Of a stretch of DNA of 64,000 nucleotides, positions 4,138 to 52,486 are shown in pieces; the first letter of the stretch is position 1; each line of letters opens with the position of its first letter. Origin of the DNA: Octopus vulgaris (taxonomy: Eukaryota). The position numbers and the translations under genes were made by a program. The DNA lies in contig OX597821.1 of NCBI GenBank assembly GCA_951406725.2, positions 41,974,001 through 42,038,000 on the forward strand, written 5' to 3'. Under the pieces are notes generated by a model. The model had not been told where the DNA came from and ran no database searches. It saw only the letters and a program-made list of their open reading frames with translations.

Positions 4138-4492
4138 AAAGCAATTAAGATTCAAGTCAATTCTAATGAATTTACTTGAATGCGGTACTTAACTTAGATG
4201 CACAAGAAAACTATATGGTGTTAACCATACAGTAATGTGGGGTGATTATAAACGAGAAAGAAGCAACAAGAATGGATTAGTTTTTAGTACAATTGTTTCA
4301 TACAAAGACAGGCTTTATTAAAAGTTGCAAATATTGCAGCAGATAAAAGTGTCCCGTACTCATCAGCTAAAACACATATGATGAGTACGGGACACTTTTA
4401 TCTGCTGCAATATTTGCAACTTTTAATAAAGCCTGTCTTTGTATGAAACAATTGTACTAAAAACTAATCCATTCTTGTTGCTTCTTTCTCGT
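4138..4492 (-). mobile_element. Non-autonomous Penelope-like fold-back element (pLTR plus inverted partial copy) inserted in (TA)n
   Basis: 114-bp inverted arms 4252-4365 / 4379-4492; left arm extends a further ~110 bp; (TA)n on both sides; contains an HHR. Confidence 0.75.
4282..4372 (-). ncRNA. Type I hammerhead ribozyme with long helix II
   Basis: Minus strand: UUUUAG-CUGAUGA-GUAC...GUAU-GAAA-CAAUUG-UA-CUAAAA; 6-bp helix I, palindromic helix III, GUA cleavage triplet. Confidence 0.8.
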
Positions 4493-25982: not shown

Positions 25983-26100
25983 CCCATCTGCGAAGTAATT
26001 TCCATTAATTTCTTCGCAGGAAGGGCTAGTTCGACGAGTCGTGTTCTGTCCTCACCTTCGAAACACGCTGGAGTTGAACTAGAGACAGCTGATGAAGGGG
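25983..26100 (+). ncRNA. Non-circularly permuted hammerhead ribozyme (site-GAAA-CUGA order) in the PLE 3' pLTR
   Basis: Helix III CGUGU/ACACG, site U26045, helix I CUGUC/GACAG, helix II GAAGG/CCUUC, GAAA at 26060-26063, CUGAUGA at 26089-26095, outer 10-bp helix. Confidence 0.7.
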
Positions 26101-34510: not shown

Positions 34511-35774
34511 TATAATTAAATGGCCACCGTTATCCTGCTGTTGATTCGCTAATTTTTCAGTATCATCTTCCATATTTGGTAAACAAACTCTCAAATGTTC
34601 TCTTTTTACTTTTCAACATTTCAGTGCTTAGTTTTCAACTCAATATTGATTCCTTTCTTGACAAAATATGCAGAGAAAGAAAAGTAATCGCTTCTTTGAT
34701 TAATTAATTGTTCGACCAATCTATCATTCAGTTAAGTTAGTCAAAATCCTTCAACACCCCAAGCCTGCTTAAACAGAAAATTTGCTTTGAATCTTTGGAC
34801 AGAAGACTTCAAATTCATTCTTAGAACTGTACATGGAGCATCAAAATAATTTTCTAAGTCTATTAATTCTTCGAGTAAGTATTTGAATGAGCAAGATAAC
34901 GTCAGAATGGAAAGGATTTGTACCAAAGAGTCGAGTGTTTTCATTTCATGAAAGTCTTTGACTGTGATCTTTTGTGGGATTTTTCAGTACCAGATGGGAA
35001 CAATAACATTCCAGGCCTGTAAGGTAAATGGTAAATCATTTTATTTTAATTTATTTTTGATTTGCATTCCTGAGGCAGCGAGCTGGAAATCGTTAGATGC
35101 TTAGAGGCATTTCTTCCGGCTCTTTACAGCCTGAATTCAAATTAGACCGGGGTCAACTTTTCCTTTCATCCCTCCAGGGGTTGATAAAACAAAGTACCAG
35201 TCATGTACTGGGTTAAATCTAATCAATTCACACCCACCCCCACCAGCCCTCCAAATTACTGATCTTCAGCCAAAACTTGAAACTTTTATTTCCATTCTTA
35301 GATCATAAGTGCAGAATCAAAATCTGCTTTGGGGTTGCAAACCCAAAATGTTCGAAGCGTTTCCATTGCCGCATCACCATCGAAAAAATTAAAGAGCGTG
35401 CCTGCATCCCTTGTACTCGAGCACCCCCTGTTTGGAAACTGTAGGTGCAGTAAGGCCGAATGTAAAAAGTTCGTTTCGCAAACCTGAGGTCTTGGGTTCA
35501 ACTCGGTTGTATGACATCTTGGGTCAAATATCAGTTTTCTGTAACCCTTGACCAACTCATAACTTGTGAGTGAAACTGGATTGACAGTTACAGATGGGTG
35601 GAGAGTACCCGCAATTTAAAAGACCTCCTGGTCACACGCTGTATCATACTGACTCTGCCGGGCAACTACATTAAGGGTACACTGTAAGTAGTGTTTATGG
35701 TACCCTAGGGTACTGGCGTAATGGTTGAGAGGGGGTATGACTACTACTGTACTTGTAAACAAGTGTGTTGTTGC

Positions 35775-36478
35775 AAATAATAATGGTTTCCAATTTTGAC
35801 ACAAGGCCAGCAATTTTGGTGGAAGGGAAAAGTCGATTACAACGAACCCAGTGCTTAGTTGCTACTTATTTTATCGACCCCGAAAGGGAGGAAAGGCAAA
35901 GTTAACCTCAGCGGAATTTGAACTCAGAATGTGAAGACGGACTAAACGCCGCTAAGCATTTTAATCGGCGTGCTAGCGATTTTACCAGCTCACCGCATTG
36001 TAAATAATAATAATCCTTTCTACTATAGGCACAAGGCCTGAAATTTGAGAGGAGGGGACTAGTTGATTACATCGACCCCAGTACACAACTGATACTTAAT
36101 TTATCGACCCCGAAAGGACGAAAGGCAAAGTCGACCTCGACAGAATTTGAACTCAGAACCTATCGACGTGCAAAATGTTTAGCAGCATTTCGCCCGTCGT
36201 CCTAACGATTCTGCCAACTCGCCGCCTTATTGCAAATAATAATAATAATAATAATAATAATAGTCCTTTCTACTGGAGGCACAAGGCCGCAAATTTGTAG
36301 GGTGGGGACTAGTCAATTGTATCGACCCCAGTGTTTCAATGGTACTTACTTTATCGACCCCAAAAGGATGAAAAGCAAAGTCGACCTCGGCGGAACTTGA
36401 ACTCAGAACGTAACGGCAGACGAAGTACCGCAAAGCATTTCGCCCGCCATGCTAACGTTTCTGCCTGCTCGCCGCCTC

Positions 36479-36517
<39 letters not shown>

Positions 36518-36670
36518 CCTTTCTACTATAGGCACAAGGCCTGAAATTTGGGGGACGGGGGTAGTCGATTACATCAACTCCAATGCGTAACTGGTACTTA
36601 ATTCGTCGATCCCGAAAGGATGAAAGGTAAAGTCGACCTCGGTGCAATTTGAACTCGGAACATAGCGACG
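35775..36670 (-). mobile_element. Four head-to-tail SINE B-subfamily copies with (AAT)n junctions
   Basis: Repeated CACAAGGCC...ATCGACCCC...GAACTCAGAA units separated by (AAT)n. Confidence 0.85.
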
Positions 36671-37296
36671 AGCGGAAAGGTTGTGTTGCTGTTGTTGGTG
36701 GTGCTGTTGCTGTTGTTGTTGTTGTTGCTGTTGTTGTTGTTGAGCCCATAGTCAACCTGATCAAACAGACCTATGATCAGAGGCACTCCAGCTGGGGCAA
36801 ATCAAACATTTTTCTTTCGACACATAGGGTATTCTAGAAGATTCCACAATCCAGAATCCATGGGTCTCTTCCGTTTTCTAAAGCAATAAGAATTTGCTTT
36901 GAGGGAGATTTAGCAAAAGTAGGGTTCTGCTGGTGGGTTTAACGGTGTGTATGTATGTGCATGTATATATATGTATGCATGCGCATCTGTGTGTGTGTAT
37001 GAGTGCACGTATGTTGTGCATGTGAGTGCATGTGTATGCGTGTGCATGCGCGCATGTGATCGTGTGCGTGCATATGTACTTGTGAGTGCATGTGTATGAG
37101 TTTTGCACTCTGTGGGATGTTGTTTCTGTTTGTGTATTGGTTTGTCTGTATGTTTGTTTATTATATGTGTTTGTGTTGAGTGTTGAGTGTGTAGTCGGTT
37201 GTGCGCGTTCCGTTGTGCTGCGTGTCATGTGATGGACGTGTTGTGATGTGTGTGTTGTATTACGCGATGAGTTGTGTGTTGTGTTGTACTCCGTGT

Positions 37297-40276: not shown

Positions 40277-40786
40277 ACATTATTATTATTATTATTATTA
40301 TTATCATTATTATTATTATTATTATTTAAGGTATTTGAGCTCAGTACATGCACGCAGTTATGTGTTCATATGAAATAACTCATACACACACACAGTAACG
40401 AGGCACACGAGCGTGTACTAAAGTGACGCGGACATCCACCACATAGATATATGCTTAACGACACATGCACCTTCATACATGCACACATTAACTAATGTAC
40501 GGGTACACAGATGCCAATATTTCCCTTGATTTAAACAAAAATGACCCTTGCTATTTTATTAGGAACCAACTTGAGTTCTGGAGAGGAGAAATCTTAGAGA
40601 AATTCGAAAGGAAAAAAAAAAGATATATTCATACATATATACATCCATACAGCCATACATACATACATATATAAAAAGGAATACCAAAAATGGGACAAGA
40701 ACGGACAGACAGTTAGATGATACAAAACAGGGACAACAGAACATCCAGACAGACAATACAAAAACCAAGGAAGGGTCAATTGGAGT

Positions 40787-40909
40787 TTTCTTTCTTCAGT
40801 CGAGTTCCAGATTATCGTTACAATTTCGGCTGATTATACTCGAGATTGCTCCAATCTGGCCAGCCCCAAGGAAAAATTAAGCTAAGAGCACTAGATTCCT
40901 TGGAAGAAA
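40787..40909 (-). ncRNA. Non-circularly permuted hammerhead ribozyme (site-GAAA-CUGA order), second family
   Basis: Minus strand: helix III GCAAU/AUUGU, AUC site (40844), helix I UCGAGU/ACUCGA, helix II GGCUG/CAGCC, GAAA, CUGAAGA, outer helix CCAGAUU/AAUCUGG. Confidence 0.75.
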
Positions 40910-41938
40910 GCAGCGAATGTATACGAAAACAAGGATGGAAAAACGGAGAAATGGTACGCAAATACAAACTTCTCAGTGAAATCAACTATGATAAAAACCA
41001 GTGGCACGAAAGAGGCTGAGGCGACCAGAAACCAACTGAATTTACGGGTTTTTTTATACAAGTTTACCTTCTCCTGAAAGGAAATTCAAGATGGAAGTCT
41101 TTCACACCCAATGGTTCACATGATAGTTAACCCCTAACTGGGACTCGAGCAGGTGCTAGTACGCCATGCCAGAGTAGACCAGGGAACAAGGGTGGTTAAG
41201 AGGTGGTTCCACACTCCTCAAAATCCCTGGAAATCCCATACCAAGCCAGATGCAGTTGAAAGTCTTACCCGGGACATACATACATACATATGTCAAATAT
41301 GTTGTGAGAAAAGCCCACTATGAATATTACAGGCCTTAATACTGTTTAGAATCACAAAAATAATGTTTGGGACCGTTTATCAATGTGGAGGAGATTCACA
41401 GCAAACATAATATCACAAGTTGATGTAGGTCTGGACAGTTCGGTGTTGCTTTAAAAATGGACAGCAACAACACCAACACTAACACCACCGCCTAACTGGC
41501 ACCATCACCAGCAACAACAATGGCAAGCCACCCTATTGTGGTACCATAATTTCGAGCGGCACACCTCAGATAAGATAACGGCAACAATTCGTGTTCAGAT
41601 AACAAAAGGTACCAGGCAAAAGGTGCGTCTATACAACGATATTTTATTTGTTTCAAATCACGAAGAAATCACAAAGGATATCTCCCCCACTCCACCCCAA
41701 CTCTTTATGGGGTGATGAGAGAGGACAAAGAAAATACCTCCTCTTCTTGGTTTATTGTTGTCCAGGTCATGTGGAGTGTGTCACGAGTGAGGTTAGTTTA
41801 GCGTTAACGGTTCAGTGAATTTACCTGCAACAACATGATTAGTAATTATAAAACATAAACTTACCATCATCTGTGAAGCACACCTACCATTGAAAGGGCT
41901 CATTAGGAAGATAATAATGACCACCTGATATCATTATG

Positions 41939-42961: not shown

Positions 42962-43480
42962 TATAAGGATAAAAAGGAACACACGAGTTGATATATATGG
43001 AAAAAAAAGTCAAGGTAGAAAATGTTAAAATAATTTTACAAAAAACATTTCAGTACCGGTTCCAGTCATTGAGACTTTTTCAACTGTAACAATTAAACAA
43101 TTAAATTTAGAAAAATTAAAAGAAAAGTTTTTTTAAAAGAATATTTGTATAGTGTTCAAATACAAGTGGCATTTTCCTTTGTTTCTGCCTGTCTCTGTCT
43201 CTCTTGTTTACTCTTGTGGGTTCGAGGTCCTTGTGAATTCTTGGTACAAGGACCTCGAACCCACAAGAGTAAACAAGAGAGACAGAGACAGGCAGAAACA
43301 AAGGAAAATACCACTTGTATTTGAACACTATACAAATATTCTTTTAAAAAAAAATTTCTTTTAATTTTTCTAAATTTAATTGTTTAATTGTTACAGTTGA
43401 AAAAGTCTCAATGACTGGAAGCGGTACTGAAATGTTTTTTGTAAAATTATTTTAACATTTTCTACCTTGACTTTTTTCCC
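42962..43480 (-). mobile_element. Young PLE-like fold-back element in a microsatellite
   Basis: ~235-bp near-perfect arms (about 43000-43234 / 43246-43480), 11-nt loop, short extension on the left, flanked by (TG)n/(TA)n. Confidence 0.8.
43051..43086 (-). ncRNA. Minimal hammerhead variant with U3-A8 core
   Basis: CAG-UUGAAAA-AGUC-UCAAU-GACU-GGAA-CCGG-UA-CUG; mirror copy at 43394-43429 (+). Confidence 0.55.
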
Positions 43481-51527: not shown

Positions 51528-52486
51528 GGCAGAAACGTTAGCACGCCGGGCGAAATGCTTTGTGGTATTCCGTCCGCCGTTACGTTCTAAGTTCAAATTC
51601 CGCCGAGGTCGACTTTGTGTTTCATCCTTTCGGGGTCGATAAATTAAGTACTAGTTACGCACTGGGGTCGATGTAATCGACTTAATCCGTTTGTCTGTCC
51701 TTGTTTGTCCCCTCTGTGTTTAGCCCCTTGTGGGTAGTAAAGAAATAGGTATTTTGTCTGTCTTTACGTTCAGAGTTCAAATTCCGCCGAGGTCGACTTT
51801 GCGTTTCATCCTTTCGGGGTCGATTAAATAAGTACCAGTTACGCACTGGGGTCGATGTAATCGACTTAATCCGTTTGTCTGTCCTTGTTTGTCCTCTCTG
51901 TGTTTAGCCCCTTTTGGGTAGTAAAGAAATATGTATTTTTTCTGTCTTTACGTTCTGAGTTCAAATTCCGCCGAGGTCGACTTTGCCTTTCATTCTTTCG
52001 GGGTCGATAAATTAAGTACTAGTTACGCACTGGGGTCGATGTAATCGACTTAATCCGTTTGTCTGTCCTTGTTTGTCCCCTCTGTGTTTAGCCCCTTGTG
52101 GGTAGTAAAGAAATAGGTATTTTGTCTGTCTTTACGTTCAGAGTTCAAATTCCGCCGAGGTCGACTTTGCGTTTCATCCTTTCGGGGTCGATTAAATAAG
52201 TACCAGTTACGCACTGGGGTCGATGTAATCGACTTAATCCGTTTGTCTGTCCTTGTTTGTCCTCTCTGTGTTTAGCCCCTTTTGGGTAGTAAAGAAATAT
52301 GTATTTTTTCTGTCTTTACGTTCTGAGTTCAAATTCCGCCGAGGTCGACTTTGCCTTTCATTCTTTCGGGGTCGATAAATTAAGTACTAGTTACGCACTG
52401 GGGTCGATGTAATCGACTTAATCCGTTTGTCTGTCCTTGTTTGTCCCCTCTGTGTTTAGCCCCTTGTGGGTAGTAAAGAAATAGGT
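51528..52486 (+). repeat. Tandem array of five 184-bp SINE B units
   Basis: Units start at 51580, 51764, 51948, 52132 and 52316; units 2 and 4 match, as do 3 and 5. Confidence 0.9.

Follow-up and report, generated by a model that had tools for sequence, protein, structure and literature searches.

The locus at 40787..40909 on the minus strand of the 64-kb window (the whole stretch of Octopus vulgaris DNA analysed here) carries the strands of a hammerhead ribozyme in a rearranged order, which raises the question of whether such an arrangement can act as a ribozyme and what it does for the element that carries it. As set out in the text of Eckert 2023 (PMC10085705), the hammerhead is composed of blocks S, G and C, and RNAs in which these blocks follow one another in the order S-G-C cleave in vitro. 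In this type-SGC, an extra helix joins the far ends of stems I and II, and block C is assumed to be uninterruptible; the examples given there come from metatranscriptomes, and none from the genomes of known organisms. We consider it highly probable that the octopus motif is a non-circularly permuted hammerhead with its core split between A9 and 10.1, trimming the RNA of a Penelope-like element by the predicted cleavage. The original prediction, which had described a permuted hammerhead on the basis of the letters of the locus, is upheld in this form, and its cut after C40844 is kept.

All of the strands and six helices that had been named were found on the minus strand at the positions claimed for them (Table 1). 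The chain runs in the order A, H, stem II (helix B), C, block S, block G, C′, stem I with CUGAAGA, and A′, and helix C forms the link between stem III and the far ends of stems I and II. As in other hammerheads, CUGAnGA directly follows stem I, GAA is followed by the A15.1-U16.1 pair, and the cut site has the form NUH, although these core features were partly imposed by the search pattern in the family survey described below. Stem II is closed beside G12 by a G10.1-C11.1 pair, which is formed via helix B. This pair was imposed by the pattern in the octopus genome, and it is G-C in all seven of the published six-helix ends considered below, which were found by CUGAUGA or by name alone. The motif departs from the hammerhead in one feature, namely that 10.1 does not follow A9 with at most 1–2 inserted nucleotides. 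The chain enters helix A right after A9, the backbone exits via A and returns via H, and an upstream strand beginning with G supplies stem II. A and H may stack into a continuous helix; together with stem II and the core they would make up a four-way junction that keeps A9 beside G10.1.

Table 1. Positions of the motif, its host element and the second copy of the fold (window coordinates; paired strands are given 5′ to 3′ on the minus strand).
Feature	Position	Strand	Remarks
5′-truncated tail (~295 nt) of ~770-nt non-coding Penelope-like repeat unit	40674..40968	-	88% identity to L015 unit
Helix A, 5′ strand (clamp)	40904..40909	-	pairs with 40792-40787
Hairpin H, 8 bp, 22-nt loop	40866..40903	-	arms 40903-40896 / 40873-40866; flush between A strand and stem II strand
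Stem II, 5′ strand (helix B)	40860..40865	-	G10.1 at 40865 first; 40865-40861 pairs with 40832-40828
Helix C, 5′ strand	40853..40859	-	pairs with 40813-40807; equals stem I-II interaction helix of type SGC
Short strand, putative k-turn-like internal loop	40850..40852	-	GA opposite GA 40816-40815
Block S (stem III strand, AUC triplet, stem I strand)	40838..40849	-	predicted cut 40844/40843
Stem III	40849-40845 with 40824-40820	-	
C17	40844	-	
Stem I	40843-40838 with 40805-40800	-	
Block G (3′ strand of stem II with terminal C11.1, then GAAA and a stem III strand)	40820..40833	-	
GAAA	40827-40824	-	
3-nt bulge, GA, helix C 3′ strand	40807..40819	-	
Stem I 3′ strand and CUGAAGA core (C3 to A9)	40793..40805	-	CUGAAGA = 40799-40793
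Helix A, 3′ strand	40787..40792	-	immediately 3′ of A9
TA/TATG microsatellite, insertion target at the element's fixed 3′ end	40630..40673	.	
Second copy of the fold, unrelated family	25983..26100	+	~790-nt unit; 1,621 candidates

Using a descriptor that combined the hammerhead core with stems I and III in the S-G-C order, only two matches were obtained in the window, 26089(+) and 40799(-), whereas 300 local dinucleotide shuffles of the whole window gave 26 core matches and a single strict match that had B and C as well. The earlier view that the covarying arrangement was not due to chance is thus borne out. A chance arrangement within repetitive AT-rich DNA would fit the unremarkable folding energy of the window motif (z -1.44) and the result of an Rfam scan of the window, in which no hammerhead was found among the best 150 of 373 matches and microsatellite or hairpin sequences matched miRNA-type models. 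It is nonetheless refuted by the shuffles and by the genome-wide excess, and the scoring against nulls, the helix pairing across family representatives and the presence of the same layout in other phyla also stand against it, making this explanation practically inconceivable.

The two copies in the window belong to families with about 39% identity across the motif. Their covariation had been called complete; it is extensive, with three of the five B pairs and three of the seven C pairs differing between them. The 1-nt G and A linkers that both were said to share are private to the window copies and are not family features, as judged from the 30 best genomic matches per family: the G pairs with C in the 40787 family (so that B is 6 bp long), the window copy having C>T there, and the A is G in 28 of 30 copies of the 25983 family. 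The AUC triplet of the 40787 copy was confirmed, but its supposedly full pairing includes two private C>T changes (40833 and 40820) that convert G-C into G-U pairs. A copy nearer to the family majority sequence would be preferable to the window copy as a test substrate, for which the latter had been recommended. The TA/TATG microsatellite, expected ~115 nt downstream, starts 114 nt downstream.

A DNA search yielded 2,986 candidates for the 40787 family, 1,621 for the 25983 family and 2,275 for a third family. The pattern YCGAAA-N(21-29)-CTGANGA has 31,534 exact matches in the genome against 3,083 for the reversed control, and the RNA motif is present at roughly 28,000 genomic copies, missed by standard descriptors. 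Among the first 30 pattern matches, 15 outscore every one of 600 upstream-shuffled nulls, and 12 gave no parse, many of these being visibly 5′-truncated. The 149 parsed copies were grouped into 20 clusters in about three lineages, mutually 31–45% identical. Eleven of the 20 clusters were used for the pairing survey, near-duplicates and worn or truncated clusters being left out, and these 11 representatives fall in about three related lineages. Pairs were counted by script instead of with a covariance model because stems I and II cross C and III; helix registers in the null scoring, cluster identity and pairing survey were fitted by an optimiser, and C11.1, H (not G) and the G partner of C11.1 were fixed by the search pattern. 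Over the first five positions of each helix, the paired cells numbered 53 for I, 52 for III, 53 for B, 52 for C, 51 for H and 50 for A (out of 55 each), with up to four Watson–Crick types per helix position across the representatives. Stems I and III therefore covary as in a hammerhead. Helix A is the weakest: in the related family with the most copies, it has U-U mismatches where it meets the junction. The 40787 family is also covered by contigs of four runs presumed to be RNA; contigs of this kind cannot show ends, strand or level, and they were given no weight in the conclusions.

The octopus fold shares with type-SGC (HRIMA-1 and its variants, as presented in the text of Eckert 2023) the block order S, G, C, all core residues, a short linker leading from stem I to stem II and an extra helix tied to stem III. 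The far-end helix of that type corresponds to helix C (52 of 55 cells), whose partner strand lies 5′ and not 3′. In contrast to type-SGC, in which stem II lies between blocks G and C and block C is uninterrupted, in octopus the strand with 10.1 and the interaction strand are both located 5′ of block S, and block C is split at A9/10.1 and clamped by A and H. The octopus order is obtained if the ends of type-SGC are joined and the chain is then re-opened between A9 and 10.1. Type-CSG has the same cyclic block order (PMC10085705, text) but an intact stem II and another opening point of the cycle. The S-G-C order has thus already been published, and the opening inside the core is the new element: the motif is hammerhead-like, yet it lacks the contiguous stem II that all six permutation types have in their published descriptions. 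Core insertions of 1–2 nt reduced activity (Perreault 2011), and in the literature examined, helices placed between A9 and 10.1 were not found in any natural hammerhead. The literature search, which covered mostly open-access text without figures, likewise brought up neither this topology nor permuted hammerheads in retroelements nor the Naiad link.

The motif could alternatively be an ordinary type-SGC hammerhead with a minimal, direct stem II, A, B and H serving as an off-state or a folding aid. A direct stem of 4 bp after one unpaired A is indeed possible in the 25983 family and its relatives, and one published Naiad end has, by eye, the S-G-C order, a 3′ interaction helix and almost no stem II. 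In the 40787 family, the bases after A9 and the strand before GAAA form at most one pair, and stem II must therefore be helix B; direct pairing was rejected for this family. Across the representatives, a direct stem II is paired in 25 of 55 cells, or in 34 of 55 after the one-base shift, which is possible in about half of the families and not in the 40787 family, against 53 of 55 for B. Moreover, the shifted direct stem shows one Watson–Crick type per position, whereas B shows up to four. A minimal direct stem II is very improbable in our judgement, and helix B is taken as stem II in what follows.

In hammerhead geometry, stem III is directed away from the distal ends of stems I and II, to which it is connected here by helix C. 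This puzzle, which is also raised in the text of Eckert 2023 (PMC10085705), speaks for a second reading, in which the active form is a head-to-tail dimer with the same core and cut and the terminal loop of one copy forms stems I and II by pairing with another copy. Each RNA would then fold A, H, C and III on itself, and cutting would need tandem or paired transcripts. The nested minimum-energy fold of the window motif recovers exactly these four helices, the units occur in tandem, and a dimer was proposed for other Penelope-like hammerheads (Cervera 2014, PMC4209133, in the text available). In the published consensus of Naiad_EuTe, III and C form by eye an almost continuous helix of ~15 bp with no hinge. 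On the other side, in the loop between III and C of the 40787 family, tandem G-A pairs come after a bulge of 3 nt, as in the k-turn consensus described in PMC2790904, which by eye is fitted by four of the 11 representatives (the 40787 family, two relatives and the Naiad-type family), and type-SGC RNAs are reported to be cleaved while being transcribed from single-copy templates (PMC10085705). A k-turn at this place would supply the bend and turn the arm back, so that a single molecule could fold. The dimer is the main structural rival, favoured by Naiad_EuTe and disfavoured by the k-turn; we regard it as possible, though unlikely. In the families of L066, L202, L080 and L212, the III/C loop is k-turn-like in some and presents AGUA opposite GAA in others, the latter being what we take to be a loop-E-like motif.

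If the RNA is cut, a reverse transcriptase would be expected to run out of template at the new 5′ end, and the 5′ ends of genomic copies were examined accordingly. Of 99 pattern matches chosen regardless of their upstream sequence, 84 were assigned to a family and the 15 unassigned ones were left out. Among the assigned copies, 28 have their 5′ end in +1..+16 relative to the predicted cut, 6 in -16..-1 and 14 in -80..-1, and the ends of 42 lie further out; about one-third thus start within 16 nt 3′ of the cut. Expressed per base at risk, ends amount to 2.5% in +1..+16, compared with 0.7% in -16..-1 (p 0.0017) and 0.37% in -80..-1 (p 2e-9). Genome-wide, reverse-strand loci of the lineage of the 40787 family that have (TA)4 just upstream number 564 up to a distance of 12 nt from the 3′ strand of stem II, 709 up to 24 nt and 807 up to 40 nt, the second step adding 145 and the third 98. 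The 564 occupy the 12 nt on the 3′ side of the predicted cut, and the 145 lie just upstream of it. A control anchor 24 nt downstream gave 60 loci, the ratios being approximate because the two anchors differ. Among the 63 edge loci listed, 54 start at +1 without C17 (2 of them ambiguous) and 9 keep C17 (manual count), an edge that holds even though more microhomology to (TA)n is available in the AAT upstream. Families of differing sequence (L230, L215, L214, L156, L247 and L101) have ends that lie at +1 or are compatible with it. That many copies begin exactly at the predicted cut makes it likely that the motif cuts Penelope-like element RNA, and the pile-up constitutes indirect evidence, drawn from genomic sequence, of cleavage in vivo.

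The same ends may be read differently, as those of a real fold that serves as a structure without cutting or as a signal bound by protein, the pile-up then being due to stalling of the reverse transcriptase, to a transcription start or to (TA)n microhomology. Most 5′ ends lie at +3 to +11 in an AT-rich stretch and only 7 of the 46 listed loci are at +1 (manual count), so that trimming or microhomology joining is required if the RNA is cut, and a core opened at A9 could be inactive. This non-cutting reading is at odds with the retention of the catalytic residues and the UH triplet while the helices covary, with the sharp upstream edge of the pile-up at +1 (54 vs 9), with +1-compatible ends recurring across those differing families, and with the 9-fold fewer ends in a downstream interval that equally contains A and T. 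We find it improbable and retain cleavage as the preferred reading. Within tandem insertions, a clear pile-up is absent from the partial copies that lie upstream (3 of 30 in +1..+16 and 4 in -12..-1). In L156, L228 and L254, inverted 5′ segments join the forward copy at the predicted cut or a few bases 3′ of it.

The window copy corresponds to positions 461–750 of the L015 unit, and other copies extend further 5′ within the ~770-nt unit. Copies of the 40787 family have a common 3′ end in (TA)n and variable 5′ ends. All of the 30 loci chosen by the 5′ part of the unit have a 3′ unit piece directly upstream, and some also have an inverted piece. No shared ORF was found upstream of the 40787 family among 60 loci, and a Naiad-type reverse transcriptase fragment used as query had no match in the window. 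The layout of the unit is that of Penelope-like elements and non-LTR retrozymes: it is a non-coding, (partially) tandem unit with a variable 5′ end and a fixed 3′ end, as in non-autonomous Penelope-like elements. The Penelope-like host assumed in the original prediction is therefore retained, but the 40787 family itself is a non-coding derivative and not an autonomous element. Non-LTR retrozymes, as described in the accessible text of Cervera 2014 (PMC4209133) and Cervera 2020 (PMC7229834), similarly consist of non-coding tandem units with one ribozyme per unit, and their mobilisation by Penelope-like enzymes has been proposed (also in bioRxiv 10.64898/2026.07.22.740005). They differ, together with the minimal hammerheads of Penelope-like elements, in that their ribozymes are of type I and were found with type I descriptors, and circular RNA has been shown there, according to the same texts; the 40787 motif is not of type I.

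Naiads, a group of Penelope-like elements, target (TA)n and are described in the text of Craig 2021 (PMC8557442) as devoid of canonical hammerheads, Naiad_Ovul and seven others being flagged ‘HHR_half_core’, a half-core whose structure is not given in the parts of the source available. The 40787 family resembles them in (TA)n targets, partial tandems and inverted 5′-truncated copies (PMC8557442) and in having no canonical hammerhead. A (TA)n insertion bias is not specific to Naiads, since Hydra-1_Obim likewise lists (TA)n targets in that source. By eye, the six-helix fold ends at least 7 of the 55 published Naiad consensi, from coral, box jellyfish, clam shrimp and octopus (Naiad_Amil, Aacu, Anas, one element of the box-jellyfish section, EuTe, Obim and Ovul). 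The consensi were read at CTGATGA places 15–21 and 25–53, CTGAAGA places 2–31, CTGACGA/CTGAGGA places 15–21 and part 19, and motifs split by line breaks were missed, making 7 of 55 a lower bound. No such motif was seen in Naiad_Ppla or in many other Naiad consensi at the places examined. The suggestion of an old structural class spread over at least two families stands as regards age, but the class is wider and reaches other phyla.

Other arrangements were seen by eye in the same consensi (PMC8557442 File S5, in the portions covered). Naiad-3_Nbra and a second element of the nematode section end in type-CSG hammerheads with an intact stem II and an interaction helix, the part-16 element combines the S-G-C order and an interaction helix on the 3′ side with a stem II that is nearly absent, and Naiad_Bfor has the split layout with a stem I of only 2 bp. 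Judging from the consensi, Naiads seem to use several openings of one knotted cycle.

In the octopus genome, the octopus-type (Naiad) core has 256 exact matches and its control none. In L178 and L196, the fold lies about 1.1 kb behind reverse transcriptase fragments (RVT_1, E 1.3e-5, below the Pfam curated cut-off); these fragments were found upstream of the fold in the Naiad-type copy, and GIY-YIG was not recovered in the three loci extended. Broken RT-like fragments at L196:2456-3214, just upstream of the Naiad-type copy, resemble a protein of the Hydra clade and are probably a separate insertion. Whereas the Naiad ORF comprises an N-terminal GIY-YIG domain and a C-terminal reverse transcriptase, the 40787 family has no ORF, and no similarity was detected between the 40787 unit and the Naiad-type copy outside the fold. 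Mobilisation of the 40787 family by Naiad may nevertheless be envisaged.

A course of events can be proposed on this basis. The ribozyme would cut tandem or read-through transcripts after the UH triplet, and a Penelope-like reverse transcriptase, most likely that of Naiad, would start at a fixed internal 3′ site downstream. Running off the cleaved 5′ end, it would produce short copies, and read-through of an uncut or re-joined ribozyme would produce long and tandem copies, including the window copy. Reverse transcription from a fixed internal site was reported for another Penelope-like element by Frangieh 2024, in the text of which cleavage is described as dispensable in vitro for that element, no read ends having been found at its cut site. 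RtcB circularisation has been shown for type I retrozymes, and a fold that holds both cut ends by several helices may serve the production of circular RNA.

Overall, we think it likely that the core is interrupted between A9 and G10.1 and restored by a four-way junction, that Naiads of different animal phyla employ this form, alongside other openings of the knotted cycle, as their missing ribozyme, and that the cut sets the template's 5′ end in vivo, leaving a nucleotide-sharp footprint in thousands of copies. If this is true, it provides direct genomic evidence for a role of Penelope-element hammerheads, a role described as unclear in the text of Craig 2021 (PMC8557442), and the 5′-end pile-up at the cut makes that role directly testable. 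It would also break the stated rule that the CUGAnGA block of a hammerhead is uninterruptible, extend the occurrence of non-circularly permuted ribozymes beyond viroid-like metatranscriptome contigs to about 28,000 copies in the genome of an animal, and offer an answer to the apparent lack of hammerheads in Naiads.

Several other structures were observed in the window. A candidate minimal type I hammerhead-like core, recognised by its core letters alone, is located at 62075-62050 (-), where CUGAUGA is followed by GAAA 12 nt on. The region 43151-43329 is a near-perfect inverted repeat with arms of about 85 bp and the look of a MITE or fold-back element, and 4315-4430 contains a long perfect inverted repeat with arms of >50 bp and a short spacer. 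Tandem arrays with periods of 184 and 229–250 nt occupy 51580-52486 and 35771-36673 and have a SINE-like sequence in common.
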